Shown here piece by piece: positions 10,592-29,914 of a stretch of DNA of 37,570 nt. The position numbers and the translations under genes were made by a program. The notes below the pieces were generated by a model. That model searched no databases. It saw only the letters and a list, made by a program, of their open reading frames with translations, and had not been told where the DNA came from. The stretch's first letter is position 1. Each line of letters opens with the position of its first letter. The stretch is from a virus (taxonomy: Duplodnaviria; Heunggongvirae; Uroviricota; Caudoviricetes): the IMG/VR virus record IMGVR_UViG_2718218135_000004, one strand, 5' to 3'.

Positions 10592-11158
10592 TCAGGGAGA
10601 TTTATTGTTCTTATTTGCCGGAAATTTTCGATAAATGGTAGAAACGCCTACATCAAAAATCAGTGCAATACGCTGTCTTGATTCTCCGGCCTCGAGTAAA
10701 CGCCCAATCTGTGCCCACTGTTCGCTGGTCAACTTAGGACGGCGTCCACCTACTCTGCCTTTAGCACGAGCTGCAGCCAGCCCCGCCCTGGTACGTTCAA
10801 CTATCAGTTCGCGTTCCATTTCAGCCAGGGCACCCATGACATGAAAAAAGAAACGGCCCATTGGGGTGCTGGTATCAATACTGTCAGTCAGGCTTCGGAA
10901 ATTCACGCCACGCTGGCGCAGCTCTTCTATCAGCGTAACAAGATGCCGCATACTGCGCCCCAGTCTGTCCAGCTTCCAGACAACCAGCGTGTCTCCTGCC
11001 GATAGTGTCCTGAGCAGCTTTTTCAGCCCCGGTCTGTCGGACTTGGTGCCACTGATTTTATCCTCAAAAATCCGCTCACATCCCGCACAGTTCAGTGCAT
11101 TGCGTTGCAAATCGGTGTTCTGGTCATTTGTTGACACGCGTACATAGCCAATAAGCAT
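10592..11158 (-). CDS. pin: serine DNA invertase (Hin/Gin/Cin/Pin family)
   Basis: MLIGYVRVSTNDQNTDLQ N-terminus with catalytic Ser, resolvase core, C-terminal HTH (VSTIYRKF); recalled close similarity to e14 Pin. Confidence 0.9.
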   Translation of the reverse strand: MLIGYVRVSTNDQNTDLQRNALNCAGCERIFEDKISGTKSDRPGLKKLLRTLSAGDTLVVWKLDRLGRSMRHLVTLIEELRQRGVNFRSLTDSIDTSTPMGRFFFHVMGALAEMERELIVERTRAGLAAARAKGRVGGRRPKLTSEQWAQIGRLLEAGESRQRIALIFDVGVSTIYRKFPANKNNKSP

Positions 11159-11213
11159 GATCATCCCCCTGAATAAAAACCGGAGATGATGCCAGTTAGC
11201 CGTTATCTCTGCA

Positions 11214-11239
11214 TTTTCATAAACGTTGGTTTGGGAGAA
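11214..11239 (-). repeat. 26-bp invertase crossover site (left inverted repeat)
   Basis: Reverse complement TTCTCCCAAACCAACGTTTATGAAAA; first 14 nt identical to the site at 13111-13136; two 12-bp half-sites around central AA. Confidence 0.8.
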
Positions 11240-11578
11240 GCGGCTAAAAGGAATGTAGGGACAGGGGCGAATCAGATACCTGATATGGGTAGCTTCACGC
11301 TTTCTGTTTCAGGTACTGGATATCAAAAATTACCATCAGGTTTTATTCTTCAGTGGGGCTCAATCGGCGCACCAGGCATTGCACAGGATGTAGTAACCCA
11401 TTTTCCGATTGCATTTCCAAACAGATGTCTGCGTGTTTTGGTCTCACAAGACTACACACCAGATAGCGGGGCTGTTGGTTATATTGCCTGCGCAGGTTTT
11501 AGTGCCGACCCGGTTAAATTTATATCCAGAGCCAGTACTCCTGGCCTCGGCGCTTCATTTTTAGCGTTAGGCTGTTAA
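11240..11578 (+). CDS. alternative tail-fibre C-terminal segment (Sv'-like; promoterless, expressed only after inversion)
   Basis: Frame runs through the crossover site encoding ..NVGLGE|AAKRN..; after inversion it fuses in frame to the H constant region ending ..TYLGLGE. Confidence 0.7.
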
Positions 11579-11599
11579 TTTAGCTATATGGAGTGAAAA

Positions 11600-12040
11600 A
11601 TGAATTACATATATTCCGCGACTACAAACTCTTTCTATCCGCTGGAGATGAAAGAGGATTACACTCAAGCTGACTCATGGCCAGATGATGCTGTTGAAGT
11701 TGATGAGCAAGCGTATATTGAGTTTTCCGGATTACCGCCGAAAGGAAAAATCCGTATCGCTGGAGAAAATGGTTTTCCTGCATGGTCCGAAATTCCACCA
11801 CCAACACATGAGGAACAAATTGCTGCAGCCGAATTGGAGAAGCAGCAATTGATTAATCAGGCCAACGATTATATGAACAGTAAACAATGGCCTGGTAAAG
11901 CGGCTATTGGTCGTCTGAAAGGTGACGAACTGGCGCAATATAATTTGTGGCTGGATTACCTGGACGCACTGGAACTGGTCGATACTTCCGGTGCGCCAGA
12001 TATTGAATGGCCTACGCCTCCGGCAGTTCAGGCCAGATGA
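11600..12040 (+). CDS. alternative tail fibre assembly protein (Tfa/U'-like)
   Basis: 146-aa ORF following the Sv' segment; shares C-terminal motif (TSxAPDIxWPxxP) with the convergent Tfa at 12012-12614. Confidence 0.8.
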   Translation: MNYIYSATTNSFYPLEMKEDYTQADSWPDDAVEVDEQAYIEFSGLPPKGKIRIAGENGFPAWSEIPPPTHEEQIAAAELEKQQLINQANDYMNSKQWPGKAAIGRLKGDELAQYNLWLDYLDALELVDTSGAPDIEWPTPPAVQAR

Positions 12041-12614: not shown

Positions 12615-14173
12615 TATGCAGCCCTCACGATATACGCAAATGCCAGGTTCCGTGGTCTGGTTTCTTTAATTAAAGAGGAGGCATCAGGTGAACTCACTGA
12701 TTCAGCACCATTTCTTCCACCAGTGGTATAAGTAAAAACTCTTTCACTGTTAGACCAGTAATCCACACCAACTGTTTTTGCTGATGAAAAAATGGTTTCA
12801 TCAGATATAACCTGTTCTATTCCATACGGGATATTAGTAACTGACCCCACTTTTGTAGGTATTCCATGATTATGAGAAATTACTGCATGCTCTTGATTCG
12901 TTAATAAAGTACGACCGCTATCCACTCCACGCCCGTCATCCCAGCCACGAATAAACTCACCACGTAAATCAGGCAATTTATTTGTCGGATAAGCCTTTGC
13001 CAGTTCCGGGTATTCTTCAGCAGAAAAAGCGGCACCGTTGCATTTCAGCCAGCCTGTTGGCGGAGTGGCGGAAGGCCACGGAACAGGCACGCCAACGGGT
13101 AATGCCGAACCTTCTCCCAAACCAAGGTATGTGAGAAGACCTGCTACATCCTTTCCACTCAAATTAGTCAGCGTATTGTCCAGCGGTTGTTTACCTGCCA
13201 GCGCATTAAGCATTGTCGTGGCAAAGTTCGGATCATTCCCCAGTGCCGCCGCCAGTTCGTTCAGTGTATCCAGTGCCTCAGGTGCAGAACCCACCATTGC
13301 TGCAATCGCCGATTTCACAAAAGCCGTAGTGGCAATCTGTGTATTGTTGACCGACTGCGCCGCCGTGGGGGCTGTTGGCGTTCCGGTGAGTGCAGGACTC
13401 GACAGCGGCGCTTTCAGTGCCAGCGCATTGTTAATGGTGGTACTGAATTTCGGATCATTGTTAATGGCTACGGCTATTTCTTTCAGCGTGTCCAGCGTGG
13501 CTGGCGCACCATTAATAAGAGCCGTCAGTGCCGCCTGAACAAATGCGGTGGTCGCAAGCTGCGTGGTATTATTCCCCGCCGCTGGCGTTGGCGCTTTGGG
13601 AGTTCCGGTAAACGTCGGACTTTCTTTGGGTGCATACTGTGAATGCGGGTCCGGTGCGGCAAGATGTTTTGCCATCAGGTCATCCACGTACACCTTCAAC
13701 TCCAGTGCTTTGTCATCCACATACTTGCGGGTTGCCAGCACTACGGCAGGGTCGATTTTCAGGGTGATATTGTCCGTGCTGCTGGTAATCAGCACCATGC
13801 GCACGGTCTGGGTACGCCCGCTGCCTTCAGCCAGTTGCGGCTTATAGCTTTCCGGGCAGTTTCCCACGGCAATCAATGCCCCGGACTCATCAAACAGGCC
13901 CACTTCACGTATCCACCAACCGCCCTCGTTTTCAGGGATCACCTGTTCAGCAATAATCTGGCTGCTATTCTGCGGGTCGATATAAAGCATATTCAGCGCA
14001 GCCCGGCGTTTCTCATTTACCAGTGCCGTCTGCTTTGCGTCCGGCGTTGGCAATACTCCGCCGCCATCGCCCACCGCCATATGGGTAATTTTTAGCGGCA
14101 CACCGAGCGCGGCGGCGCTGGCAAGTTTCGCCGCGCCAATATCCGTCAGCAGGGTATAAAATTTTGTGCTCAT
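12614..14173 (-). CDS. H: tail fibre protein gpH-like (constant N-terminal part plus currently fused variable C-terminus)
   Basis: 519-aa ORF with repeated TTAFV..ALxxLxxAL blocks; crossover site embedded at codons TYLGLGE. Confidence 0.9.
   Translation of the reverse strand: MSTKFYTLLTDIGAAKLASAAALGVPLKITHMAVGDGGGVLPTPDAKQTALVNEKRRAALNMLYIDPQNSSQIIAEQVIPENEGGWWIREVGLFDESGALIAVGNCPESYKPQLAEGSGRTQTVRMVLITSSTDNITLKIDPAVVLATRKYVDDKALELKVYVDDLMAKHLAAPDPHSQYAPKESPTFTGTPKAPTPAAGNNTTQLATTAFVQAALTALINGAPATLDTLKEIAVAINNDPKFSTTINNALALKAPLSSPALTGTPTAPTAAQSVNNTQIATTAFVKSAIAAMVGSAPEALDTLNELAAALGNDPNFATTMLNALAGKQPLDNTLTNLSGKDVAGLLTYLGLGEGSALPVGVPVPWPSATPPTGWLKCNGAAFSAEEYPELAKAYPTNKLPDLRGEFIRGWDDGRGVDSGRTLLTNQEHAVISHNHGIPTKVGSVTNIPYGIEQVISDETIFSSAKTVGVDYWSNSERVFTYTTGGRNGAESVSSPDASSLIKETRPRNLAFAYIVRAA
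13111..13136 (+). repeat. 26-bp invertase crossover site (right inverted repeat, inside H)
   Basis: TTCTCCCAAACCAAGGTATGTGAGAA; internal dyad of 12-bp half-sites around central AA; encodes LGLGE in the H frame. Confidence 0.8.
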
Positions 14174-14775
14174 GGATTCACTCTCATTGTGTCAATAACA
14201 TGGACCGCCCCGCCTTCATGCGCGGTGCCACCGGAAATAATCGTTTCGTTGATATACGGATAGATCGTGATTTCTTCGCCAAGATAACTGGCGGCTCCCA
14301 CCCAATGCGGGCCGCTGGTCTGCAGATTGATGGACATGCCGATCATGTGACGGCTACATGGTTTGGCATCGCTTATCAGCCGCTCAAGTTCCAGATAGGT
14401 ATCTTCAGTGATGCCCTGGTCCTGCACGCCGATGTCCAGGCGAAACGTGCCCGGTGTTTCTCCGGTCTGCCACCACTCAATAATGCGGATCAGAAAGCCG
14501 AACGGCTCCACCACCCGCCGCACGGCACTGGTGGTCCCTTTATGCTGATGAATATAAAAAGCATCCTTCACTACCTGGCGTTTGACGCTTTCTGTCCAGC
14601 CTTCGTCCCAGCGATCCACAGAGAACGCCCAGGCGAGATAAGGCAGGAAGCTGACCGGGCAGGTAGCCGGATTCCACAAGTCACGCAGCGGCACCTGCAG
14701 ATCAGAAATCCCGCTGCACGTTTGCGCCAGTCGGCGCTCCAGTGAAGTTGACCCCGATGGCAGCAGACTATTCAT
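14170..14775 (-). CDS. I: baseplate assembly protein gpI-like
   Basis: 201-aa ORF between J and H, P2 order. Confidence 0.85.
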   Translation of the reverse strand: MNSLLPSGSTSLERRLAQTCSGISDLQVPLRDLWNPATCPVSFLPYLAWAFSVDRWDEGWTESVKRQVVKDAFYIHQHKGTTSAVRRVVEPFGFLIRIIEWWQTGETPGTFRLDIGVQDQGITEDTYLELERLISDAKPCSRHMIGMSINLQTSGPHWVGAASYLGEEITIYPYINETIISGGTAHEGGAVHVIDTMRVNP

Positions 14776-15676
14776 CCGTTCCCCCGTTGGTCACGCTCCA
14801 CTGCGTACATGATGCCGCCTGCGTTTTGTTCAAAACCACATCCGCCAGCGGCGAAGCCAGCTCCACACGCTGCACACCCTCAACATGCAGGGCGGCAAAG
14901 ATGGCGCTACGGCGAATATCCCGACCAAGCCGCGTCTGACTGGCGATGTACTTCTGCAGGCTGGCTTTTGCCGCTGCCATTACCGGCTCTGCTTCCGGCC
15001 CCGGATAGAGAAAAATGGTGGCTTCCACGCGGTACGGTATGATTTCTGCGCTGCGAACCGTCAGACGGTCAGCCACCGGGCGGACGTTCTCACTGTTCAG
15101 GGCGTTCTCCACCACATCCAGCAGGTCTTTTTCTGCTGTTCCGTCGCCTTCGCGGCTAAGGACAGTCAGTACCACCTCTGCAGGTGCCGGGCTGGTTGCA
15201 CTGGCATCCGCCACCCGACCGTCGGCGCTTCGGGCATGAAATTCATAAGCTGCGGTTGGCCCCGCAACCGAAAGCCCTTCAAAAGCCGCAGGCACACGCA
15301 GGCGTAACGCTTCATCGCTTTCCATCACAGCCGCAACGGGTGGCACAGCGTCATTATCAGCAGGCGTCACCGTCAGGCGTTTCACGTTGTAGTTGGCAGC
15401 GAGCTGGTCAAGATCGCCGCCCATCGCGTAAGCCACCATCACAGCATGCGCGGCTTCGTTAATGCGCTGGCGCAGAAGCAACTCACGGTAAGCGTTCTCC
15501 TGAAGCAATTTGGTGACGGGTTCAGATTCCAGTTCCAGCGTGCGGATCACTGCTTCCTGCTCATCTTTCGGATGAAGCGCAACAAATTCGGCCTTGCGTT
15601 CGGCAAGCAGCGTCTCAAAGTCCGGCACATCTACAATCTGCGGCGCAGGCAACTGCGAAAGGTCAATCACTGCCAT
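14768..15676 (-). CDS. J: baseplate assembly protein gpJ-like
   Basis: Start chosen at internal MAVIDLSQLPAP (15676); ORF-track start 15715 is an extension. Confidence 0.85.
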   Translation of the reverse strand: MAVIDLSQLPAPQIVDVPDFETLLAERKAEFVALHPKDEQEAVIRTLELESEPVTKLLQENAYRELLLRQRINEAAHAVMVAYAMGGDLDQLAANYNVKRLTVTPADNDAVPPVAAVMESDEALRLRVPAAFEGLSVAGPTAAYEFHARSADGRVADASATSPAPAEVVLTVLSREGDGTAEKDLLDVVENALNSENVRPVADRLTVRSAEIIPYRVEATIFLYPGPEAEPVMAAAKASLQKYIASQTRLGRDIRRSAIFAALHVEGVQRVELASPLADVVLNKTQAASCTQWSVTNGGTDE

Positions 15677-16022
15677 TCTCTGCTCCTGTTGATACGGAAA
15701 GGGAAACAGGCACACCGTTATTATGCCGCCCGGTCAGCTCCACCACCATTGAACCGTCAAAATTGCTGTTGATGGTGATGGAATCCAGCGTCAGCCGTGG
15801 CTCCCAGCGACTCAGCGCCACATACACTGCCGACATGACCTGCAGGCGTAATGCCGGATTTTGTGGCTGGTCTATCAGTGTCGACAACAGGGAACCATAT
15901 TCCCGACGGGCAATGCGGCTACCCTGCGGTGTCAGTAGAATGTCCCGCACCGACTGACGCAGATGGTCAATATCAGTAATGGCTTTACCGCTGGTATTGT
16001 TCATCCCGCTATAAAGCGTCAT
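15663..16022 (-). CDS. W: baseplate wedge protein gpW-like (gp25 family)
   Basis: 119-aa ORF, recalled similarity to P2 gpW (..GSR..RRxYGSLL..). Confidence 0.85.
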   Translation of the reverse strand: MTLYSGMNNTSGKAITDIDHLRQSVRDILLTPQGSRIARREYGSLLSTLIDQPQNPALRLQVMSAVYVALSRWEPRLTLDSITINSNFDGSMVVELTGRHNNGVPVSLSVSTGAENGSD

Positions 16023-16597
16023 ACCGGACCTCCAGTCGTGTCGCCGCCTTTCAGGACGCCAGTATGCTGATGCGCATCAACCACGATCCCGTTAGAACTC
16101 ATCGCTCCGCCACCCTGGGTAACGCCACCATTGATCACCACTTCGCTGTTAATGCGCGTGCGGTCAGCCTCCAGTACAAACTCACTGGTTTTCATGGTGA
16201 TGTTGTCAGCGGCCTCAATGACCATTGATTTGATGCCCCTGACATACCAGCTCCCGGTGGCGGGTTCGTATTCAAACCAGCCACCGTCAGGATGTTCTGT
16301 CACGCAGGCGTCCGCCGACGTCGACGGTGGTGCGAACTGATTCGAATAGACAGCGGGCAGCGCAAAGGCAGTCTCCAGATTGCCTCCCAGACTCAGCAGC
16401 ACCACCTGCTCACCTTCCGATGGTTTCCACCATGTGCGGGCATTACCCGCGCGCAGCGTCAGCCAGCTGATCCAGTTGGTTTCAAGGTCGCCCGTTTTCA
16501 CCCGGCAAAGCCAGTTCTCCCGGTCCACTTCGGTAACTACACCTGTTCGGATCAGATTGGTGATAAGGCGCATGATTTCGGTTAATTGTGCGTTCAT
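16019..16597 (-). CDS. V: baseplate spike protein gpV-like
   Basis: Start chosen at MNAQLTEIMRL (16597); in-frame upstream ATGs at 16615 and 16663 make the exact start uncertain. Confidence 0.85.
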   Translation of the reverse strand: MNAQLTEIMRLITNLIRTGVVTEVDRENWLCRVKTGDLETNWISWLTLRAGNARTWWKPSEGEQVVLLSLGGNLETAFALPAVYSNQFAPPSTSADACVTEHPDGGWFEYEPATGSWYVRGIKSMVIEAADNITMKTSEFVLEADRTRINSEVVINGGVTQGGGAMSSNGIVVDAHQHTGVLKGGDTTGGPV

Positions 16598-16644
16598 ACC
16601 GTATATATTAAACATTTGAAATAATATCTTCCAAACGGCATAAT

Positions 16645-16662
16645 TGTACTGAGGATGACACA
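16645..16662 (-). promoter_or_regulatory. P2-type late promoter dyad (TGT-N12-ACA), probable P_V
   Basis: TGTACTGAGGATGACACA in the V/cargo intergenic region; overlaps a sigma70-like -35 (TTGTAC) facing the cargo ATPase gene. Confidence 0.55.
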
Positions 16663-16709
16663 AATGATTATAAATTTAAGTAGCTCAACTAATAATAAAG
16701 GATACATAG

Positions 16710-17913
16710 ATGTATAAAATTCAAAGCGTCACAATTAATGGCTTTTGGCAGCGATTAAACTGTTCCTGCTCATTTAATGATGATGTAAATATTATTATAG
16801 GCCGAAATGGCACGGGTAAAACAACCTTTATGAACCTTCTGCACTCAATATTATCCCTTGATTTGGACAGTATTAACAATGCTGATTTCAATAGTGCCGA
16901 AATAAAACTTAAAGATAAAAAAAAGACAAAAACAATCAAAGTCAAAAAACTTGAAAGCGAATTCGTTATTTAACACTGATGATAGAAGAATATCTCTTAG
17001 TTATAGACGTAGAGTGCATGATGAAACAGAAGAACTAAGAACAGAACTAGCAAAACTAGTCTCGCTTTCTTCTTTATCTGTTTACAGATTAAGAAATAGT
17101 GATGATTTTGAAGTTAAAGATAAATATGGCTCTCGTTTTATCAACCCTGTTGACTATAAGTTATCAGAATTAATACAGGAACTTACAAAATATCAACTTG
17201 AACTATCCCAGAAAGCCAGAGATATCGCATTAGAACTGCAAAAAGAGGTTCTGGCATCAATACTTTATAGCAAGGAAGATATGGAGAATCCTGCTTACAA
17301 CATTAACTTTAACAAAGAGGAAGAAAAACAAAACCTCCTTAATGCATACACACAGTTAAATGCTATTGATCAAAACATTCGTAAAAAAATCAGCTTTCAT
17401 GTTGAAACAATTAATAATACCATTTCGGAATTAAAGAATAAAAGTGAAAGTGGCTTTGATATTCGTTCGATCGAAGCATTGAGAAAAACACAAAAAATAA
17501 TCAAAATGTCATTAACTTCAAAAGAGAAAACATCAAAAATATTTTCTCCAATAGAACAATTCTTAAGCATACTAAGAAATTTTATCACCGATAAAGAATT
17601 TCATTTTCAATCGGGATTGTTAGTCATAAATAACACCTATGGGCCAATAGTTTTAGAAAGTTTATCTTCTGGTGAAAAACAACTGCTAATTTTATTCATT
17701 GAGACCCTCTTGCAAAGAGGGCAACAATATATTTTCCTAACTGATGAGCCTGAGCTTTCCTTACATATTCAATGGCAAAGAAATATTATCCCTGCCATAA
17801 AAAAATTAAATCCTAATGCACAAATTATTGCTGCAACCCATTCTCCTGAAGTTGCATCTAAATATAAAAACGCCATTTTCAATATGGAGAGATTAGTCAA
17901 TGCTAATCAATGA
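16710..17913 (+). pseudogene. ABC-type ATPase (AAA_15/21-like, AriA/OLD-ATPase-like), split by a +1 frameshift at an A8 tract (16917-16924)
   Basis: Walker A GRNGTGKTT in the 87-aa N-terminal ORF; SSGEKQ, Walker B YIFLTDEPELSLH and ATHSPE in the 320-aa C-terminal ORF; the two ORFs overlap 16951-16973 in different frames. Confidence 0.7.
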
Positions 17914-18756
17914 TTCTAATGCAGAAAACTTTTCTTGGTCTAATGAAGCGGAAAATGTGATCAGTTTATTTTATGATGCTGATATTATGGTCTATGTTGA
18001 AGGTGAAGATGACATTGCTTTTTGGGAAATAATTTTTAAAAAAATGGTCGTTTTAATGTAGAAGTTCAAGATGTTGGTGGATGTGAAGCTTTACAACCAT
18101 ATATCGAAAAAATAACCTCAGGAGAAATAAACGCTATAGTTGCCAGAGATTCGGATCTAAACCATTTTTCTGACAACATAGTAAAGCATACAAATATTAT
18201 TTACACAAAGGGATATTCAATAGAAAACACAATCATTGATGAAAAAATCATATCACACATACTCAAAAACACAGGCCGTTTTTGCACGAAAAAAATGCAG
18301 GAAATAGATGTGGAAAATTGGCTTTCTAATTTCTATAGCAACATTGAGAACTTAATAATACTAGATATTCACAATCATTTAAATAAATTAGGATGCTCCG
18401 TAATTGGTGATTCCTGTGATCGTTTTATGCAATCAAGAAATTCATACAATATATGCAAGGAAAAAATAGATGAATATATCAATAGACTACCTGAATCGTT
18501 TACTACTAATGGTTTAGCAGAAAAAAACAACATTCAATTCCCAGAAAATACATCTATAAATCATTGGGTGAAAGGGCACTTTCTTTTCTCAGCATCATTA
18601 AGATTTATAACAAACTTTTTGGCATCCATCAATAAAAAAACCTCTATATCCAAGGATAGTTTTTACGCAAACATCTTGTCTGCATTTGAGATTTTTTATA
18701 CAGAAGAACATGCTGATTATAGTTATTACAATCAAAAGATAGGGGCCATCACATAA
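17900..18756 (+). pseudogene. Toprim-like (OLD/DUF4435-type, AriB-like) protein, split by a frameshift at an A7 tract (18038-18044)
   Basis: ATG 17900 overlaps the ATPase stop by 14 nt; frame 2 reads ..VYVEGEDDIAFWEIIFKK then stops at 18059-61; frame 1 is open from 18040 to 18756 (..AIVARDSD..GYSIEN..). Confidence 0.65.
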
Positions 18757-18785
18757 AAAAATAAAGGCTGGCTTTTATGCCAGCC
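18757..18785 (-). terminator. hairpin terminator between convergent cargo operon and gene S
   Basis: GGCTGGC-TTTTAT-GCCAGCC (18766-18785) with a U-run on the minus strand (plus A-run 18755-18765). Confidence 0.55.
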
Positions 18786-19233
18786 AATCCCCAGAAAATA
18801 AATTCATAATGAATATTTTTCGAATTAATTTTTCACATCCATTTAATCCAAGCAATTTTCTCTCTGCGTAACGGATCTCAGGTCCTTTGCGGCTGACGCG
18901 ATCACGTAGGCCGTAATGGTGAACGCGGGCAATGCGCTGTACCTTACCTTCAAACTGTACGCTGGCAGTATCCGCGCTGGCGGCAGTTTTCAGGTATTTT
19001 GTAGTGCGCAGCTTTGTAAACATCTGACGTTTGATCCGCCCCTTTTTACTGCGTGCTGTTACCCGTCGCGGTTCATAGCTGCTGCCGTCAGGGTTGCGCT
19101 GCATCCTGATATTATGCTGCTGTGTCCGGCGCAGTTCCTGCGACAGCTGGCGCATCATGCGGCTTCTTGCGGCTGGTTCTAGATTCGCCAGCAAGGCACT
19201 CAGCCAGTCGTCCACCTTCTGCAGTTCAGCCAC
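18775..19233 (-). CDS. S: tail completion protein gpS-like
   Basis: 152-aa ORF following R, P2 order. Confidence 0.85.
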   Translation of the reverse strand: MAELQKVDDWLSALLANLEPAARSRMMRQLSQELRRTQQHNIRMQRNPDGSSYEPRRVTARSKKGRIKRQMFTKLRTTKYLKTAASADTASVQFEGKVQRIARVHHYGLRDRVSRKGPEIRYAERKLLGLNGCEKLIRKIFIMNLFSGDWLA

Positions 19234-19678
19234 GTTTCACCGTCCACATTTCTTCAGGTTCATCGGGTTCTGCTACAGCTTCAACGCTCGACACACTGCC
19301 GTCAGTACTGACCAGCACACGTTCCGTCAGTTGCAGGTTAAGGCTGATATCACAGACATCGTTGCGCAAAATATCCACCTCAAAGGTGAATAGCTTTTCC
19401 CGTAACGCCGGGTTATTGATGGCATCGGGCTGGTTATCCCGAAGCCACAGTAAAACCGGGGCCATCAGCAGATTCTGGTCGCCGCTGAAATCCTCTATCA
19501 CCACGTTCAGGGTATAGCGGTACTCCCATGACATGGAGCTGGCCCCCGTGGCAACCAGCGAACCGTTATCCACAAACAGATGCAGTTTGTCCGGGTTATT
19601 GCGGACATAAGGCACCGCTTTATTGAGGGCGTGGCGCAGGGATTGTGGTTTGTTCACTGTTTCGCTCCTGACACGCAA
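19226..19678 (-). CDS. R: tail completion protein gpR-like
   Basis: 150-aa ORF, 8-nt overlap with S. Confidence 0.85.
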   Translation of the reverse strand: MRVRSETVNKPQSLRHALNKAVPYVRNNPDKLHLFVDNGSLVATGASSMSWEYRYTLNVVIEDFSGDQNLLMAPVLLWLRDNQPDAINNPALREKLFTFEVDILRNDVCDISLNLQLTERVLVSTDGSVSSVEAVAEPDEPEEMWTVKRG

Positions 19679-19910
19679 TAATCATGTCCACTTTGTCTGC
19701 ACAGACCGCCCAGGCGGCCTCCGTTTCATCCAGCAACGCGTTCAGATCACCGTTAGTGCGCGGCGCTGCCTGCCCCAGCCGACACGGCGTCACTCGCGGA
19801 CAACCACTGACGGTAAGCTGCACCTCCGGTGAGTGTGGGGCGTTCCCGCAGCCGGATAATGTCAGCAGGCAAAGGAGTATCAGCCCAGCGGCGTAAATCC
19901 TCGTTCTCAC
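19620..19910 (-). CDS. lysC: o-spanin lipoprotein LysC-like (Rz1-type), nested out of frame in lysB
   Basis: Signal peptide plus lipobox LTLSGC; Pro-rich mature part; begins inside lysB in another frame and extends past its stop. Confidence 0.75.
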   Translation of the reverse strand: MRTRIYAAGLILLCLLTLSGCGNAPHSPEVQLTVSGCPRVTPCRLGQAAPRTNGDLNALLDETEAAWAVCADKVDMIIACQERNSEQTTIPAPRPQ

Positions 19911-20181
19911 GTTTCAGTTCCTCAATCCGGTGTTGTCGTTGTCTCAGCAGTACACTGGTCTGTTCTGCTTCGGCATAGAGCCGCGCCTGCTCCCGGTTAT
20001 TGGTTTCAGTCAGAATGGACAGGCTGATAAGCTGGCTGTTGCTCTTTGCCAGTGCATGGCTTTTGCTCCGAAGCTCGTCTGCCTGCGTGCTGATGGTCTG
20101 GCTGGCATCAGCCAGCCGCCACGTCTGCCAGCCCAGCGCCGCCAGTAATAACGCCAGCACAACCAGCAGCAACCGGTTCAT
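19753..20181 (-). CDS. lysB: i-spanin LysB-like (Rz-type)
   Basis: N-terminal TM helix (LLLVVLALLLAALGW) followed by coiled-coil periplasmic domain. Confidence 0.8.
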   Translation of the reverse strand: MNRLLLVVLALLLAALGWQTWRLADASQTISTQADELRSKSHALAKSNSQLISLSILTETNNREQARLYAEAEQTSVLLRQRQHRIEELKRENEDLRRWADTPLPADIIRLRERPTLTGGAAYRQWLSASDAVSAGAGSAAH

Positions 20182-20555
20182 GCTGCTACCTGTTGCGCCA
20201 TCTGATTACGGGTGATCCAGAAGGCAATAACGGTCAGTAGATAAAAGACCAGGGTAATAGCCCACCCCGTCCAGGCGAGACTGACGACAATCAGCAATCG
20301 CATCATCCAGCTGATAAATACGTTTTCTTTTCGGGTAATTGTCTTCAGCAAAGATGCCCTCAACTCCTGCCAGAGCGGGCCGTTCTTAATTAACGCAGCC
20401 AGTGATACCGGAATTACTGCCCATGTCAGCAGACAGGCTACCCAGACACCAGATGCTGCCAGTACTGGAAAAATCCCCTGCGGATACACCATTGCGGCGA
20501 TTAACAGCGCTATCCATAACATCAGAAACAGCCCGCTGATTACTTTCTTTTTCAT
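20178..20555 (-). CDS. lysA: lysis regulatory membrane protein LysA-like
   Basis: Multi-TM protein; start chosen at MKKKVISGLF (20555) with GGAG RBS, directly after K stop; ORF-track start 20627 is an extension overlapping K. Confidence 0.7.
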   Translation of the reverse strand: MKKKVISGLFLMLWIALLIAAMVYPQGIFPVLAASGVWVACLLTWAVIPVSLAALIKNGPLWQELRASLLKTITRKENVFISWMMRLLIVVSLAWTGWAITLVFYLLTVIAFWITRNQMAQQVAA

Positions 20556-20556
20556 T

Positions 20557-21069
20557 TCAGTTTGCTCCCTGTAAGCACCAGGCCATCTCCCGCGCACGGC
20601 GGTTATCCAGCCCCTGATTAAACACACCTTTTACATACACCCAGCGCGGCAACTGTCGGCACGCATCCGCCCAGCGCCGCTGATTGAGCAATTTCACCAG
20701 CGTGGAACTGCAGGCATTGCCCGTTCCCACGTTGAAGGCAAACGACACCACCGAGTCATACACCTTTTGCGGCGGCTGTTGCTTCACACACCTTTCCAGC
20801 GCCCGCTCCACACGTAGCACGTTGGAGATCAGCCCTTCCGCTGCCTGTCGTTCCGTAATGGTTTTTCCTGGAATGACACCTGATGTATTACCAATGCCGT
20901 CGGTCCAGACACCCGCGCTGCACTGATACGGCTGCAGACGACAGCCTTCGTAATCGGCAATCAGTTTCAGCCCCTCCACGGAGGTGTGAAGTTGCTGAAA
21001 ACCCGGTAGCGTGGCAGCAATAGCCAGCACGGCCCCGACAAGGCAGCGTTTAACGATTGATGGATTCAT
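20557..21069 (-). CDS. K: endolysin gpK-like (lysozyme-type)
   Basis: 170-aa ORF with N-terminal signal-anchor-like segment; P2 lysis cassette position. Confidence 0.85.
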   Translation of the reverse strand: MNPSIVKRCLVGAVLAIAATLPGFQQLHTSVEGLKLIADYEGCRLQPYQCSAGVWTDGIGNTSGVIPGKTITERQAAEGLISNVLRVERALERCVKQQPPQKVYDSVVSFAFNVGTGNACSSTLVKLLNQRRWADACRQLPRWVYVKGVFNQGLDNRRAREMAWCLQGAN

Positions 21070-21265
21070 AGTCCTCCCGCGAGATCTGCCCGTCGCGCAG
21101 AAGCTGGTAGGCTTTGTGTTTGTAGTACCAGTTGATAGCCAGCATCAGCACACCAATCATCAGGCCGCCCAGCGTTGAGGCATCCTTGATGGACAAATCG
21201 CCCAGCCAGGCCAGCACGACGGCGATGCAATACGTGATAAAGGCGCTGATTCGCTCAAGCGTCAT
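21050..21265 (-). CDS. Y: putative holin (two TM helices, charged C-terminus)
   Basis: 71-aa ORF with two hydrophobic helices and basic/acidic tail KHKAYQLLRDGQISREDYESINR; located between X and K. Confidence 0.6.
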   Translation of the reverse strand: MTLERISAFITYCIAVVLAWLGDLSIKDASTLGGLMIGVLMLAINWYYKHKAYQLLRDGQISREDYESINR

Positions 21266-21268
21266 AAT

Positions 21269-21472
21269 TCAGTCCCATAGCTGGACGGTCTGCACGGTGG
21301 TGGTGGTCGGAATGTCCGGCAGCTCCACCTGCAGCCCGTGAGGTAAAAAGGGGCCGTATTCGGCAAGCCCCGGATTTGCCTTCAGTACCTGCTCCGTGAC
21401 ACCCTGCGTGCGCCCGTAATGACGCCAGCAAAGCGCGTCCACCGTGTCATACTGATGCGCACGCACTTTCAT
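21269..21472 (-). CDS. X: tail protein gpX-like (67 aa)
   Basis: 67-aa ORF MKVRAHQYDTVDALCWRHYGRT..; recalled similarity to P2 gpX. Confidence 0.85.
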   Translation of the reverse strand: MKVRAHQYDTVDALCWRHYGRTQGVTEQVLKANPGLAEYGPFLPHGLQVELPDIPTTTTVQTVQLWD

Positions 21473-21999
21473 CAGATAAGCTCCACTGTGCAGTGCGGCG
21501 CATCCTGCACCCGGCTGATGGCCCAGCGGGCGTCACGCCACAAATCACCGCTTGCTTCCGCCAGTTCCTCGCCCCGCTTCACACCGGACGCCGTGGCGTC
21601 ATAGTCCTGGTAACGTTCGTTGAGCATGGCGCGTGCCCAGCAGTAAACCGCGTTGAAATAGTGCTGAATGCGCTCACTTTTGCCGTCCAGCTGTTCCGCC
21701 GGAACCTCAGCCAGCGACACATACCCCAGCATCTGCTGACATCTGCGAAACTCATACAGCTCTGCGTTGACCTCCGAAATTGCCGACAGCGCAACCTGCT
21801 TTAAACGCGGCTGCGTCACCGTGCCGTCAGTGCGCATCACGCTGCGAAACTCCGACAGGTCCACATCAGGCCAGAACGGCGTATTCCTGATGATTTCCGC
21901 CTGTTCCGGTGCCTGTTCTGGCGCAACAAACTTCATGCTGCTTTCTCCTGAAATAGAGGGCGGTGGACGGGGTTTTGATGTGGCAGTGCCTTTCGCCAC
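21472..21999 (-). CDS. L: head completion/stabilisation protein gpL-like
   Basis: 175-aa ORF; true start may be the internal ATG at 21936. Confidence 0.8.
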   Translation of the reverse strand: MAKGTATSKPRPPPSISGESSMKFVAPEQAPEQAEIIRNTPFWPDVDLSEFRSVMRTDGTVTQPRLKQVALSAISEVNAELYEFRRCQQMLGYVSLAEVPAEQLDGKSERIQHYFNAVYCWARAMLNERYQDYDATASGVKRGEELAEASGDLWRDARWAISRVQDAPHCTVELI

Positions 22000-22031
22000 C
22001 CCGTGCCGCCCGTGCGCGGGGGCACGTTCTG

Positions 22032-22682
22032 TCAGCGGCTGTCATTGCGCAGTCTGCGCTCCAGCTGCTGTTTGTCTTTTTTCACGCCACAGCGAGGATC
22101 GAGCTGTAACGCATGGTTGAGATGATTAAGGGCGGAAGCCGGGTTGCTTTCACTCAGGACAGCGCCAATCGCTTTATGCAGACGCGCCCGTGACTGGTCC
22201 GGCATATCCAGACCGTCTGTCAGCTCCAGCGTCTGCAGCAACAGATCGGCATCAAAGCCGGTGGCGGCAAGCATTGCGCTCTGCGCCGCGTCTGCCATTT
22301 CCTCTGCCAGCACGGTCTGCACGTTGCGGTTACCCAGCGGCATCACCCAGCCATGACGCAGGGCATGACGCCCGATCTCCAGCGCCCCTGCATAATCTCC
22401 GGCATCAATGCGCCACAGCATCACGTACATCAGCACGTCATCCTGTTGAGCGCCTCCGGCAGCCAGAACGCCCTCCGCCCAGGCGGCATATTTCGGCAGC
22501 AGCTCCACCTTGATTTCTGCTTTTTTGACCGTGGACTGAACGCCCTTGAGACGGCGGCGGTCTTCCGCCAGTTGCAGCAGCATCAGGTCATAGCCCGACG
22601 CGTGGCGAACACTGCCACCCTCGCGAGCGGCCTGTTCAGCCTGAACGCGCAGGCGATGCTGCCGTGCGGGACTCAGGCTCAT
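22032..22682 (-). CDS. M: terminase small (endonuclease) subunit gpM-like
   Basis: 216-aa ORF between N and L. Confidence 0.8.
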   Translation of the reverse strand: MSLSPARQHRLRVQAEQAAREGGSVRHASGYDLMLLQLAEDRRRLKGVQSTVKKAEIKVELLPKYAAWAEGVLAAGGAQQDDVLMYVMLWRIDAGDYAGALEIGRHALRHGWVMPLGNRNVQTVLAEEMADAAQSAMLAATGFDADLLLQTLELTDGLDMPDQSRARLHKAIGAVLSESNPASALNHLNHALQLDPRCGVKKDKQQLERRLRNDSR

Positions 22683-22685
22683 GAA

Positions 22686-23744
22686 TTACGCTCCGGTTTC
22701 TGCTGCGGCGGCGCTGAAGTCACCAATCTGGATGTTTTCCACCAGTGCAGCGCAGCGATAGTCCTCAACCACATAGGCTTCGTTAACGGATTCAAAATTT
22801 TCAATCCGGTCACGTTTCGGGTTGTCGATAACTGAACGGCGGCGGGTATCTTCCTGCCAGTAGATGGACAGGTTATCCAGACGGGTGATCAGCAGCGCAT
22901 TCGGCGGGAAGAACGGCGCACGCACTGCCTGCAGGCCACCCATGCGTTTCTGACTGATGATCATATCGGCAGCCAGTTTTTCACTGTTTTCCTGCTCTTT
23001 GTTGACCAGCGGGAAATACTTGTCAGACAGCAGTTCACGACCGCAAATCACCACCAGATCGTCATCGTCCTGGTAGACCACATCGATAAGCTCATTGACG
23101 GCATCCATCACTACGGCGTCCAGGTTGGCATATTCGCCACCTTTCCCGACTTTCACCGCGCCCGGAGTGGTTTCACCGCCCGTGGTGGTGCTGCCCATGA
23201 CGTGATCCGGTGCATCTTCACGGATTTTCTGCAGCCAGCCTTTGTTCACATCCTGCAGCAGCGGGTTTTCGCTACGGTTGGAGGTTTTCGCACGCTTCAC
23301 GCCGTTAAAGCCGATCATGATGCGGTCCAGTGCCTGACGTTTTACGATGGCGTCACGGATACGCACCTGGAAATCCTGAAACTTCGCCCACAGGTCCAGC
23401 TTCGCGTAGGTCAGCACCGTGTCAAAGTTAGTCTGCTCGCATTTGTATTCCACATCGACCATTAGCGTCGGATCGACAGGCTCACGCTCTTTAGCTGTGG
23501 TATCAGTGGTTCCGGCAATGGTGCTGCCAACACCCAGCCCCAGCAACTGACCAGACTGCTCAGTCACTGGCGTGACGTTAATCAGCGTCAGGAATGCGGC
23601 GGACTGCTGGATCTGATCTTCCAGCGTCTGCTGCACAGACGGCTCTACAGTGAACTTGCTGGACAGTTCTTCAACGGCCACACCGTTCAGACGCGCCAGC
23701 TGCTGCAGGTAAGCGTTAAAAGCAAAGCGGGTATTCTTCTTCAT
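22686..23744 (-). CDS. N: major capsid protein gpN-like
   Basis: 352-aa ORF. Confidence 0.9.
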   Translation of the reverse strand: MKKNTRFAFNAYLQQLARLNGVAVEELSSKFTVEPSVQQTLEDQIQQSAAFLTLINVTPVTEQSGQLLGLGVGSTIAGTTDTTAKEREPVDPTLMVDVEYKCEQTNFDTVLTYAKLDLWAKFQDFQVRIRDAIVKRQALDRIMIGFNGVKRAKTSNRSENPLLQDVNKGWLQKIREDAPDHVMGSTTTGGETTPGAVKVGKGGEYANLDAVVMDAVNELIDVVYQDDDDLVVICGRELLSDKYFPLVNKEQENSEKLAADMIISQKRMGGLQAVRAPFFPPNALLITRLDNLSIYWQEDTRRRSVIDNPKRDRIENFESVNEAYVVEDYRCAALVENIQIGDFSAAAAETGA

Positions 23745-23760
23745 CGGGTTTTGTGCTCCA

Positions 23761-24594
23761 TCAGCAATTGGTCAGAGTGTCAGCGGGGGCGTTACCGCCT
23801 GTTGCACGCTGGCGGTAGTCCTGGCGGCTGTCTTCATGACTCAGCTTATTCACCAGTTCGTTAAAGGCGGTCTGCTGTGCCTGCAGGGCAGTCTCCAGCT
23901 CAGACAGACGTTCTTCCTGCTCAGACAGGGATTTTTCGGTGCGTGCGCTCAGGTTTTGCTGCTCAGTGGCGACCAACTCCACGGCCTTATGCACATCAGA
24001 GAACCGGGCATCGTCGGACTGCTCTTTTTTGGTGAACAGTGCCGTGACGCGGGCAAACAGGGACGGCTTGTCCTCCTGGATTTCTTCCAGTTCGATCACC
24101 GTTTCCTCTGCGGCGGTAAAGAGATTGGCGGGATTCTGCTTGCGGTTTGCCAGCGGGTTATGGGCTGCACTGGCGCTGAATGTCAGCATTTCAGTGCCCA
24201 GACTGGCAGGGTCATCAGTGGCAGCCAGGCCGACCAGGTAGGCTTTGCCCGTATCAGCAAACTTCGGACTGACTTCCATAGATGTGAATAATTTCTGGCC
24301 TTTTTTCACCAGTTCCACCAGGGATTCCGTTGGCTCAACGTCGGCATACAGCGCCATCTTGCCTGCCAACGGACCTTCCGTGATTTCTTCAGCAAACAGC
24401 GCCGTCACCTTGCCGTAGCGGTTAAAGGTGCTGTCCGGCAGATAAGACTTGATGTGCTCAAGGTTAATCAGCGCGGTATACACCGCCGGGTTGTAGCTGG
24501 CTGCCATCTGTTCCAGCCATTCACGCTGGATTTCGCGTCCGTCGGTGGTGGCACCTTCCACCCCGATGCGAAAACGCTTTGCTTTCACTGTCAT
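23761..24594 (-). CDS. O: capsid scaffolding protein gpO-like
   Basis: 277-aa ORF, first gene of leftward late operon. Confidence 0.85.
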   Translation of the reverse strand: MTVKAKRFRIGVEGATTDGREIQREWLEQMAASYNPAVYTALINLEHIKSYLPDSTFNRYGKVTALFAEEITEGPLAGKMALYADVEPTESLVELVKKGQKLFTSMEVSPKFADTGKAYLVGLAATDDPASLGTEMLTFSASAAHNPLANRKQNPANLFTAAEETVIELEEIQEDKPSLFARVTALFTKKEQSDDARFSDVHKAVELVATEQQNLSARTEKSLSEQEERLSELETALQAQQTAFNELVNKLSHEDSRQDYRQRATGGNAPADTLTNC

Positions 24595-24672
24595 GAGCCG
24601 TGCTCCGTTAGAAAAAACTTACTGGAGCCTTATGGTTGCGGTGATGGGGGCAGTGAAACAATGCGCGGTATT

Positions 24673-24690
24673 TGTACCGACAACCACACA
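24673..24690 (-). promoter_or_regulatory. P2-type late promoter dyad (TGT-N12-ACA) in the divergent P/O intergenic region
   Basis: TGTACCGACAACCACACA, about 87 nt upstream of the O start codon. Confidence 0.6.
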
Positions 24691-24736
24691 AACCGCAGGC
24701 GGGGAAAGCCTTCATTCAAGGCTGTAGGTTTGTGCC

Positions 24737-26503
24737 ATGAACACCACACTGACACCCGCAGATCTCGATCCCCGTCGGCAGGCCATGCTGCTGTACTTTC
24801 AGGGATACCGCGTCGCCCGCATTGCTGAAATGCTGGGCGAGAAAGTTGCAACTGTTCACAGCTGGAAAAAACGCGACAAGTGGGGTGACTATGGGCCGCT
24901 GGATCAGATGCAGCTCACCACCGCCGCACGCTACTGCCAGCTCATTATGAAGGAGCACAAAGAAGGGAAAGATTTCAAAGAGATTGACCTGCTGGCGCGC
25001 CAGTCGGAGCGCCACGCGCGGATCGGCAAGTTTAACAATGGCGGCAACGAAGCCGACTTAAACCCTAACGTCGCCAACCGCAACAAAGGCCCACGCCGTC
25101 AGCCGGAAAAGAATGTTTTCACCGATGAACAGATTGAGAAGCTGGAAGAAATCTTCCATTCCTCCATGTTCAACTACCAGCGCCACTGGTGGGAAGCCGG
25201 AAAAACCAACCGCATCCGCAACCTGCTGAAGTCACGCCAGATCGGCGCAACCTTCTATTTTGCCCGTGAAGCCCTGATTGACGCCCTGCTGACCGGACGT
25301 AACCAGATTTTCCTTTCCGCCAGCAAGGCACAGGCCCACGTCTTTAAGCAGTACATCTTCGACTTCGCCAAAGAAGTGGAGGTGGAGCTGAAAGGTGATC
25401 CGATGGTGCTTCCTAACGGTGCCACTCTTTACTTCCTCGGCACCAATGCCCGCACTGCCCAGAGTTATCACGGCAACCTGTATCTGGATGAATATTTCTG
25501 GATACCGAAATTTCAGGAGCTGCGTAAAGTGGCTTCCGGTATGGCTATTCACAAAAAATGGCGACAAACCTATTTTTCCACGCCATCAAGCCTGACCCAC
25601 AGTGCTTATCCGTTCTGGTCCGGTGCGCTGTTCAACCGTGGACGCAACAAAGCCGACAAGGTGGACATCGACCTGTCCCACAGCAATCTGGCCCCCGGCC
25701 TGCTGTGCGCAGACGGGCAATACCGCCAGATAGTCACCGTGGAAGATGCGGTGCGCGGCGGCTGCAACCTGTTCGACCTTGACCAGTTGCGCATGGAGTA
25801 CAGCCCGGACGAATACCAGAACCTGCTGATGTGCGAGTTTGTGGACGATCTCGCGTCCGTGTTTCCGCTCAGCGAGCTGCAGGCGTGCATGGTGGACAGT
25901 TGGGAAGTCTGGACCGACTTTCATGCACTGGCCCTTCGCCCGTTTGGGTGGCGCGAAGTGTGGATCGGTTATGACCCGGCAAAAGGTACGCAGAACGGCG
26001 ACAGCGCCGGATGCGTGGTGGTGGCACCGCCAGCCGTGCCGGGCGGTAAGTTCCGTATTCTTGAGCGCCACCAGTGGCGCGGGATGGACTTCCGCGCCCA
26101 GGCGGACGCCATCAAAAAACTGACCGAACAGTACAACGTGACATATATCGGCATCGACTCGACGGGTGTCGGTCACGGGGTTTACGAGAACGTGAAAGCG
26201 TTTTTTCCTGCCGTCCGGGAGTTTGTCTACAACCCCAACGTTAAAAATGCCCTGGTACTCAAGGCATACGACATTATCAGCCACCGCCGTCTGGAGTTTG
26301 ACGCCGGGCACACCGACATTGCGCAGTCATTCATGGCAATCCGTCGCGCCACCACCGCCAGTGGCAACCGCCCGACCTATGAAGCCAGCCGCAGCGAAGA
26401 AGCCAGCCACGCCGATCTGGCCTGGGCAACGATGCACGCACTGTTTAATGAACCGCTGCAGGGCGAGTCCGCCAATACAAGCAATATTGTGGAGATTTTT
26501 TGA
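24737..26503 (+). CDS. P: terminase large (ATPase) subunit gpP-like
   Basis: 588-aa ORF divergent from O. Confidence 0.9.
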   Translation: MNTTLTPADLDPRRQAMLLYFQGYRVARIAEMLGEKVATVHSWKKRDKWGDYGPLDQMQLTTAARYCQLIMKEHKEGKDFKEIDLLARQSERHARIGKFNNGGNEADLNPNVANRNKGPRRQPEKNVFTDEQIEKLEEIFHSSMFNYQRHWWEAGKTNRIRNLLKSRQIGATFYFAREALIDALLTGRNQIFLSASKAQAHVFKQYIFDFAKEVEVELKGDPMVLPNGATLYFLGTNARTAQSYHGNLYLDEYFWIPKFQELRKVASGMAIHKKWRQTYFSTPSSLTHSAYPFWSGALFNRGRNKADKVDIDLSHSNLAPGLLCADGQYRQIVTVEDAVRGGCNLFDLDQLRMEYSPDEYQNLLMCEFVDDLASVFPLSELQACMVDSWEVWTDFHALALRPFGWREVWIGYDPAKGTQNGDSAGCVVVAPPAVPGGKFRILERHQWRGMDFRAQADAIKKLTEQYNVTYIGIDSTGVGHGVYENVKAFFPAVREFVYNPNVKNALVLKAYDIISHRRLEFDAGHTDIAQSFMAIRRATTASGNRPTYEASRSEEASHADLAWATMHALFNEPLQGESANTSNIVEIF

Positions 26504-27549
26504 TGGGAAAGAGTAAGAAAAACCGCGCTGCGGCGATGAATCACATCCAGCATAAAAGCCAGACTTCAGCCGAAGCATTCAGCTTCGGCGATCCCGTTCC
26601 TGTTCTGGACCGCCGAGAATTACTGGACTATGTGGAATGCGTACAGATGGACCGTTGGTATGAGCCGCCCGTCAGCTTTGACGGACTGGCGCGCACCTTC
26701 CGCGCCGCCGTGCATCACAGTTCCCCGATTGCAGTAAAGTGCAACATTCTGACCAGTACCTATATCCCTCATCCGCTGCTCAGCCAGCAGGCTTTTTCGC
26801 GTTTTGTGCAGGACTATCTGGTATTTGGTAACGCCTACCTGGAGAAACGCACGAACCGCTTCGGTGAAGTTATCGCCCTTGAACCGACCCTGGCAAAATA
26901 CACCCGACGCGGATTAGACCTGGATACCTACTGGTTTGTGCAATACGGCATGACTACGCAGCCGTATCAGTTCACGAAAGGCAGCATTTTTCATCTGATG
27001 GAACCGGACATCAACCAGGAGATCTACGGCCTGCCCGGTTATCTTTCTGCCATTCCGTCAGCCCTGCTCAACGAGTCCGCCACGCTGTTCCGCCGCAAGT
27101 ATTACATTAACGGCAGTCATGCAGGCTTCATCATGTACATGACCGATGCAGCGCAGAACCAGGAGGATGTGAACAACCTCCGCAATGCGATGAAAAGCGC
27201 CAAAGGTCCTGGTAACTTCCGTAACCTGTTTATGTACTCGCCTAACGGTAAAAAGGACGGGCTTCAGATTATCCCGTTGTCAGAAGTGGCGGCGAAGGAT
27301 GAGTTCCTGAATATCAAGAACGTGAGCCGGGACGACATGATGGCGGCGCATCGTGTGCCGCCACAAATGATGGGGATAATGCCTAATAATGTCGGGGGGT
27401 TTGGGGATGTAGAAAAGGCAAGCCGTGTCTTTGTCCGCAACGAGTTGATACCTCTGCAGAAACGCCTACAGGAACTTAACAACTGGCTGGGCGATGAAGT
27501 TATACGTTTCGAGCCGTACACTTTAGATATTCAGAATGAAAAGAAATAA
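26500..27549 (+). CDS. Q: portal protein gpQ-like
   Basis: 349-aa ORF, ATGA overlap with P stop. Confidence 0.88.
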   Translation: MMGKSKKNRAAAMNHIQHKSQTSAEAFSFGDPVPVLDRRELLDYVECVQMDRWYEPPVSFDGLARTFRAAVHHSSPIAVKCNILTSTYIPHPLLSQQAFSRFVQDYLVFGNAYLEKRTNRFGEVIALEPTLAKYTRRGLDLDTYWFVQYGMTTQPYQFTKGSIFHLMEPDINQEIYGLPGYLSAIPSALLNESATLFRRKYYINGSHAGFIMYMTDAAQNQEDVNNLRNAMKSAKGPGNFRNLFMYSPNGKKDGLQIIPLSEVAAKDEFLNIKNVSRDDMMAAHRVPPQMMGIMPNNVGGFGDVEKASRVFVRNELIPLQKRLQELNNWLGDEVIRFEPYTLDIQNEKK

Positions 27550-27577
27550 AAGTTAGCGAATAAAAATCATTAGCATA

Positions 27578-27596
27578 GGCCGCAAACTGAGCGGCC
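27578..27596. terminator. hairpin between convergent Q and hotspot operon
   Basis: GGCCGC-AAACTGA-GCGGCC followed by TTATT. Confidence 0.5.
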
Positions 27597-27603
27597 TTAT
27601 TCA

Positions 27604-27873
27604 TTACCAATTTCTTTTTTCGGAGTTTAGCCAATCACCGCATGGATAATATCTTGACGCCCATTCACCTTGTAAACGAGCTACAAACAGAATATCGTTA
27701 CTATCGACCCTGGCTTGGAGTCCGTCACGCAGTTGAGTTGCGGTCAGCGTTGTATCTACTAACCAAAATGATTCAAGATATTTACAGTATGTAAATTGCT
27801 TTAGATAGTCAAAAACTTCATCGTAGTTTCTTCCCGGAGCCTTCAAGTCATAGGTTATACAATAAATAGCCAT
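27604..27873 (-). CDS. hypothetical 89-aa protein (hotspot cargo)
   Basis: ORF with GGAG RBS that overlaps the stop of the upstream Zn-ribbon gene; no family recognised from sequence. Confidence 0.55.
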   Translation of the reverse strand: MAIYCITYDLKAPGRNYDEVFDYLKQFTYCKYLESFWLVDTTLTATQLRDGLQARVDSNDILFVARLQGEWASRYYPCGDWLNSEKRNW

Positions 27874-27876
27874 TCT

Positions 27877-28059
27877 CTAAGCTCCGCATTTTTTATCATT
27901 TGGGGAACATCTTAACCTGCGACATTTGCGGCAATACGATTGAGGGATCAGCCGCTCTCCTTCCATAGTTCTAAAACCAAACACTTCTTCAATTTTGTTC
28001 AAATCACCACTTGCAATAACCCCACAGCAGGGGCAGACAGCCTCAATTTGAAATGCCAT
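27877..28059 (-). CDS. small Zn-ribbon protein (about 60 aa; CPCC...CRKC)
   Basis: Start chosen at ATG 28059 with GGAG RBS; ORF-track TTG start 28122 is less likely; Cys pattern C-x-C-C ... C-x-x-C. Confidence 0.5.
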   Translation of the reverse strand: MAFQIEAVCPCCGVIASGDLNKIEEVFGFRTMEGERLIPQSYCRKCRRLRCSPNDKKCGA

Positions 28060-29506: not shown

Positions 29507-29614
29507 TCAAAATTAAAGCTACTTCAGCATAGTCCCTGAGAATATATATCAGGGACTACCAAATCACGGCAGATACCCCTTAGTTAAATAATGCTAAACG
29601 CTTAGAAAGAGACC

Positions 29615-29914
29615 ATGAAACGTATAACTTTCTCCTTTACGTTAGTAGCAATCATCATAGCCTTAGCTGGATGTGCTTTGCCAGATAAAGACGGCGACTT
29701 CGGAGCTTATGTTCATGCCTGTCAGCAATATGCATACGGAAAATCCTATGCCTTTGAGAATAGAGACTTCGCGTATAAGGTCTGTAAGGACGCGGCGAAA
29801 CTGTGGAGTGAAGAAGTTCCTGGCTATATCATCAGGCAAATTCAACTACATCCTGAAATACCCAGCGAAGAAATTAAATATGCAGCCATGGCCGGCTCTT
29901 TGGGTAACAACTAA
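29615..29914 (+). CDS. small lipoprotein (99 aa)
   Basis: MKRITFSFTLVAIIIALAGC signal peptide plus lipobox. Confidence 0.7.
   Translation: MKRITFSFTLVAIIIALAGCALPDKDGDFGAYVHACQQYAYGKSYAFENRDFAYKVCKDAAKLWSEEVPGYIIRQIQLHPEIPSEEIKYAAMAGSLGNN

Follow-up and report, generated by a model that had tools for sequence, protein, structure and literature searches.

We consider it highly probable (roughly 80%) that positions 16710-18756 of the window, by which we mean the whole 37,570-nt stretch of viral DNA analysed, hold a pseudogenised two-gene PARIS defence system, carried as V/S cargo by an otherwise intact P2-like prophage, with ariA broken by a deletion of 52+1 nt and ariB by contraction of an A8 tract to A7. 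The 52-nt deletion and the loss of a T cut the Walker A motif from the rest of the ATPase, a separate one-base contraction (A8 to A7) breaks ariB, and after the loss of one gene the remainder presumably drifted; A6-A8 runs crowd these AT-rich genes and probably slip easily, which would make frameshift alleles recur across the population. In characterised PARIS systems the ATPase activity of AriA and the AriA-AriB association are both required, and AriB alone gives no defence (PMC11464382); because of these requirements the window copy should be inert, with neither immunity nor cost expected of it. The original prediction had seen a frameshift at an A8 homopolymer in a cargo ATPase and had read it as either genuine inactivation or a slipped-strand switch. 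Genuine inactivation stands, whereas a reversible switch as the lesion of ariA does not, the change being an irreversible deletion.

The carrier is an otherwise intact P2-like prophage adjoining ybjL, its host-side neighbours are ybjL/ybjM/grxA of the E. coli chromosome, and all of the remaining prophage genes compared with relatives are of normal length. The cargo, at 31% GC against ~55% for the phage, is flanked by P2-type genes V and S (Table 1), which is the position of orf30 in P2. This slot is variable among P2-like phages, which differ there in non-essential ORFs, phage R18C for instance carrying a 741-bp ORF where P2 has the 261-bp orf30 (PMC6823313). The insertion point between V and S is common to P2 and the window, whereas here the slot is filled by a 2.1-kb two-gene defence system. 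A limited literature search found no paper describing the V/S slot as a defence hotspot, and the location also differs from the PARIS sites of Rousset et al. (PMC9122126), being V/S and not the cos-proximal gpA-gpQ or the P4 hotspot. The cargo was not found in isolated phages, the nearest being a 65%-identical relative in vB_EcoM-813R9. Elsewhere in the window, the gpQ-gpA cargo hotspot (27550-30320) is AT-rich and contains a DUF6694 protein (28628-29506) and several small ORFs with no assigned role, whilst a serine invertase (Resolvase + HTH_7) in 10592-12040 adjoins, on the other strand, alternative cassettes for tail-fibre C termini and tail-fibre assembly, making up an invertible host-range segment whose content varies among related loci. 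The prophage of E. coli EC596 (L001), one of our intact PARIS references, is itself rearranged at 6367-7998, where a truncated replication endonuclease pseudogene abuts lysC, leaving that prophage without a large part of the lysis, head and packaging region.

That the ATPase is defence cargo of the prophage was correctly anticipated, and it is ariA of a PARIS system: the cargo pair consists of ariA (ABC-type ATPase) and ariB (DUF4435/TOPRIM nuclease) of a divergent PARIS. In intact relatives the two genes are adjacent and co-oriented with a 14-nt overlap, encoding a 418-aa AriA (AAA_15/AAA_21) and a 285-aa AriB (DUF4435), and the window fragments match the same families, the ariA 5' fragment AAA_15/AAA_23/AAA_21 (N-terminal) and the ariB 3' remainder positions 116-236 of DUF4435. 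Among PADLOC profiles, AriA matched PDLC04164 (7.6e-39, also PDLC02979/02980) and AriB matched PDLC02983 (4.1e-22, positions 2-234 of 236), whilst the PtuA and GajA profiles also matched, more weakly than AriA. A phmmer search of AriA against the PDB returned the PARIS AriA chains 8ux9_B and 8v45_A as best matches (E 1.5e-20). PtuA and retron ATPases ranked lower, and the similarity to the solved PARIS relatives (8ux9, 8v45-49) lies mainly in the C-terminal ATPase half. For AriB, sequence searches of the PDB gave no match with either a single sequence or a profile; its AlphaFold (AF2) model (pLDDT 91.6) has the AriB chains 8v46_D and 8ux9_A as top Foldseek matches (probability 1.00, TM 0.53-0.57), followed by OLD TOPRIM domains. 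The family alignment shows no variation in the AriA motifs GRNGTGKT, LSSGEKQ, FLTDEPELSLH and ATHS, nor in E34, D37/D38 and D84xD86 of AriB, and homologues are uniform in length (AriA 415-427 aa, AriB 278-285 aa).

The arrangement is that of the PARIS of E. coli B185 (PMC9122126; PMC11464382; PDB 8ux9, 8v45-8v49), in which an ABC ATPase gene likewise overlaps a downstream DUF4435 TOPRIM gene and the operon likewise rides a mobile element of the P2/P4 world. In B185, the only system for which this is known, defence is triggered by anti-restriction proteins (Ocr, Ptr1/2), whereupon released AriB cleaves tRNA-Lys (PMC11464382). The cargo differs from it in the length of AriA (418 aa against 464 aa in B185), in an AriB only ~15% identical to the characterised one, and in that both genes are pseudogenes in the window. 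OLD-family proteins, Septu PtuA and Gabija GajA belong to the same ABC-ATPase superfamily, and the TOPRIM partner is related to the C-terminal domains of OLD; unlike Septu (HNH), or OLD and GajA (fused TOPRIM), the nuclease here is a separate DUF4435 protein, and AriA/AriB score best in both the profile and the structure searches.

To place the lesions we aligned the window base by base to the intact cargo of L001 and L002 (99.8% and 99.3% identity). This cargo occurs in only 2 of 5,426 complete E. coli genomes, in both of which it is intact (418-aa AAA ATPase, 285-aa DUF4435). Between 16959 and 16960 a 52-nt segment, ATACATC...AACACAC in the intact copies, is absent from the window (its placement is ambiguous by 1 nt), and one T of a TTT is also gone at 16966-16967, eight bases beyond the 52-nt gap, a net change of -53 nt. 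This loss removes ariA codons 84-101 and shifts the frame, separating Walker A from the other ATPase motifs; in an AlphaFold model of an 86% ortholog of AriA the deleted codons correspond to strand 89-95 and half of strand 98-104, in the sheet lobe beside Walker A. The reading frames themselves were as originally described, the Walker A ORF ending after 87 aa at TAA 16971-16973 and the +1 frame, closed by a TAA at 16903-16905, being open from 16906 to 17913, with TTG 16951 or GTG 17014 as possible starts. Other split alleles yield exactly the same C-terminal fragment when this 3' remainder is taken in its 299-aa version.

Table 1 Features of the PARIS cargo and its borders in the window.
Feature	Position	Strand	Remarks
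P2-type baseplate gene V	16019-16597	-	Left border of cargo slot
ariA 5' fragment (87 aa, Walker A GRNGTGKT)	16710-16973	+	Native to codon 83, then four out-of-frame codons and TAA
A8 tract (codons 70-72, DKKK)	16917-16924	+	Wild-type, in-frame length; not the lesion; slips (A7, A9) in other genomes
Deletion scar (52 nt + 1 T)	16958-16967	+	From alignment to intact copies
ariA 3' remainder (+1 frame)	16974-17913	+	Coiled-coil, LSSGEKQ, Walker B/D-loop FLTDEPELSLH, H-loop ATHS
ariB 5' fragment (53 aa)	17900-18061	+	TOPRIM Glu (VEGEDD) kept, then out of frame to TAG
ariB A7 tract	18038-18044	+	1-nt homopolymer deletion relative to A8 in intact copies
ariB 3' remainder (native frame)	18045-18756	+	DxD motif, C-terminal helical domain; untranslatable from the ariB start; internal ATG ORF 18295-18756
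P2-type tail completion gene S	18775-19233	-	Right border of cargo slot

The A8 tract is present exactly where it had been reported. Its proposed role as the site of the frameshift is contradicted by the same A8 in seven intact or otherwise informative relatives, the actual cause being the 52+1 nt deletion 35-50 nt downstream. The 68-nt stretch shared by both frames, in which the A8 had been singled out, also holds A5 and A6 runs and the deletion junction itself. An A/T run of at least 8 is expected by chance in ~2.5% of 68-nt stretches of such composition; to suspect the A8 was reasonable, and its position inside the shared stretch turns out to be a coincidence. Removal of one A does yield a single ORF of 400 aa with the predicted peptide, because 53+1 = 54 nt, or 18 codons, and 418 - 18 = 400 aa; this ORF is, however, not the native protein, 13 of its residues being out of frame and 18 of the 418 being missing. 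A +1 slip in a tract of true length A7, possibly a reversible on/off switch in the source genome, would agree with this restored ORF and with the slippage of the same tract in other genomes. Against it, the intact 418-aa genes of L001, L002, L003, L012, L013 and L014 are all A8, the native gene with A7 gives a frameshifted 90-aa product, the -53 nt fully explains the change of frame in the window, and the 'restored' protein is predicted by the structural model to have three of its four strands at residues 62-104, in the sheet lobe by Walker A, missing or scrambled. Judged by these sequence comparisons, the slip reading is already refuted, and we give it almost no chance. The original prediction had named as a refutation intact ATPases that naturally end at this point, followed by a separate downstream gene; none was found, and we reject a naturally split ariA, as the homologues are uniformly 415-427 aa and unsplit.

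The junction created by the deletion reads GAAAGCGAATTCGTTATTT, and the junction string searched for is absent from both the genome contig and the viral contig collections. Exact-match look-ups of the 87-aa and 320-aa window fragments likewise gave no match, the 87-aa product being found later by cluster listing (P0296; WP_249531180.1) on one E. coli contig only, whereas intact AriA is present on 478+118 contigs (~600). At 16958-16965 the joined ends spell CGAATTCG, palindromic over all 8 bp and with an EcoRI site inside it, which is probably due to chance. Two origins of the deletion were rejected: slippage during replication from one flanking AAAAAAC repeat to the other, whose product would differ from the observed junction, and an EcoRI cloning artefact (the junction makes GAATTC), as neither parental end is an EcoRI site.

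A third origin is a tentative lead, which we think rather less likely to be true than false: ariA would once have been interrupted at CAATTCGTT by an IS1 copy whose inexact departure damaged both flanks, with the 52-nt deletion to one side of the target and the absent T to the other. In a related locus (L011; GCA_051949255.1, 1-520) an IS1 end (DDE_Tnp_IS1, 2.7e-75) abuts CAATTCGTTTATTT, 1-2 nt from the deletion edge in the window, and at the opposite end of the presumptive 9-bp target sits the T that was lost; by a rough estimate such positional agreement would arise by chance in ~0.2-0.5% of cases. A derived SNP at 21741 is common to L011, L007 and the window, and seven further contigs, L020 among them, break off at this point. 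Against this, the junction retains no trace of IS1 and the element is absent from the whole window, two events are still needed, so that the scheme is no more parsimonious than two plain deletions, the L020 contig end (…CAATTCGTTTAT) misfits a simple 9-bp duplication, and, given the preference of IS1 for AT-rich DNA, the site may have been used independently.

The partner gene carries a break of its own, which was absent from the original prediction and does lie at a homopolymer. The ariB tract is A7 in the window against A8 in intact copies, shifting the frame at codon 49, and the shifted frame stops at TAG 18059-18061, before the invariant E55 and DxD. The same A7 is present in L003 (GCA_041140635.1), in which ariA is intact, and in L004, a metagenome scaffold; besides the ariB base, GCA_041140635.1 has only 2 mismatches to an intact reference in 6.4 kb. 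The ariB break is a true homopolymer slip, separate from the ariA lesion.

Should the breaks be errors of assembly or sequencing, owing to poor coverage of the 31% GC island, the real genome would have an intact ariA and/or ariB. The deletion allele is recorded from a single assembly, and the AT-rich cargo is where the window's private changes concentrate: over the 10-14 kb compared there are four (two synonymous SNPs, at 17712 and 18135, besides the 52-nt and single-T deletions), all within the 2.2-kb cargo (16600-18800, against 14000-27900 compared) and none in the flanking phage genes, whereas at other loci 3 of 24 private changes fall in the cargo, without such clustering. Locally poor assembly quality could be an alternative source of this clustering, and homopolymer miscalls are clear in some public assemblies (L007/L008 at 21345 and 27615, with further slips in P0289 and L026). 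However, a clean loss of 52 nt in non-repetitive sequence is atypical of errors, no further indels occur in the ~14 kb compared with relatives, and two unrelated assemblies, otherwise nearly identical to an intact reference, have the ariB A7 as well. A systematic homopolymer error had already been held less likely in the original prediction, and our comparison agrees: ybjL reads through T7 (1622) and T8 (1632) as an intact ORF (1382-3067, 561 aa), and 10 of the window's 17 runs of at least 7 were compared with relatives (14000-27900), nine of which match the relatives' length, the ariB tract alone differing. We therefore regard an artefact as unlikely and retain decay of a real PARIS copy as the explanation.

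A comparison of tract length in related prophages, which had been proposed as a check, gave a positive result, in that the ariA tract is indeed polymorphic elsewhere (A7, A9); in the window it stands at the wild-type A8. The ariA tract is A7 on at least ten contigs, with products of 90 aa and 299 aa, and these contigs fall on three cargo haplotypes, each with 0-1 mismatches to an intact reference apart from the slip, which implies at least three independent events. The tract is A9 once (L006), a third run that is normally A7 is A8 in L012, and ariB is A7 in three assemblies (window, L003, L004). Broken alleles make up ~2% of carriers, counted as contigs. The window has A8 in ariA, yet four of its five same-haplotype relatives have A7 and the fifth (L011) is without the region; on the switch reading discussed below, which we think improbable, the ancestors of the window might have been 'off' with A7 before the irreversible deletion. 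L007, L008, L026 and P0289 were treated as possibly noisy and discounted, and L005, a contig-end truncation, was uninformative; L014 had been a candidate for a noisy assembly, which we rejected, as its extra A8 arises from a substitution. At the equivalents of 21345 and 27615 a homopolymer is one base short in both L007 and L008, complete GenBank genomes that SNPs place apart, and one of these deletions removes the gpX gene call; the deletions are probably long-read under-calls, and the ariA A7 in the two genomes is suspect.

Phase variation through homopolymer tracts is known in defence genes, including the mod genes of phasevarion-type restriction-modification systems and the G-tract of Streptomyces Pgl/pglX. 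Like these, ariA has a 5' mononucleotide run whose length varies among close relatives and turns the gene off; in contrast to them, the tracts here are only 7-8 nt, are unconserved in the ortholog and have rare off alleles, and the ariA lesion of the window is an irreversible deletion. The A8 tracts of the ariA/ariB allele might be contingency tracts switching a costly abortive-infection system off and on, the window being one state later fixed by deletion, a reading to which we assign a slim probability, slightly below that of an artefact. It draws on the three or more independent A8 to A7 changes in ariA on three haplotypes, the one A9, the ariB A7 in three assemblies, the A7 to A8 change at the third run, the 5'-proximal position of the ariA tract and the A7 in four of the five same-haplotype relatives. 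Against it, a G breaks up the ariA tract in the 86% ortholog (GAC AAA AAG AAA ACT) though the DKKKTKT peptide is unchanged, off alleles amount to ~2% of contigs, 7-8 nt is short for programmed switching in E. coli, and a contraction bias, together with IS and deletion alleles, fits plain decay. The ariA tract is absent in the 69%, 68% and 50% orthologues, and only the 86% ortholog retains the ariB A8; in the AlphaFold model of the AriA of this ortholog the codons corresponding to the ariA A8 lie in a hairpin turn. The ariA A8 tract looks like a mutational hotspot in AT-rich cargo and not a programmed switch. The 86% ortholog family (P0287/P0301) has its own ariA frameshift allele, at a different A7 run (…SSKNIPSDY…), and slippage at runs is therefore a general route of decay in these AT-rich genes.

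Both the defence family and the variable P2 slot are known, and nothing here would surprise a specialist; the recurrent independent A8 slips are a modest population-level curiosity. For annotation, the four ORF fragments are two pseudogenes of one PARIS system and not a frameshift-prone ATPase, and the source strain should not be counted as PARIS-positive. More widely, AT-rich, run-laden defence genes such as these inflate the 'system present' counts of genome surveys, and the V/S slot of P2-like phages is flagged as a second place for defence cargo. At least six to seven independent events, of five kinds, have inactivated a single PARIS allele (ariA slips from A8 to A7, three or more in number, one A9, an ariB slip, an IS1 insertion and the 52+1 nt deletion), the carrying prophage remaining intact throughout, a compact natural example of abortive-infection cargo that is repeatedly lost.
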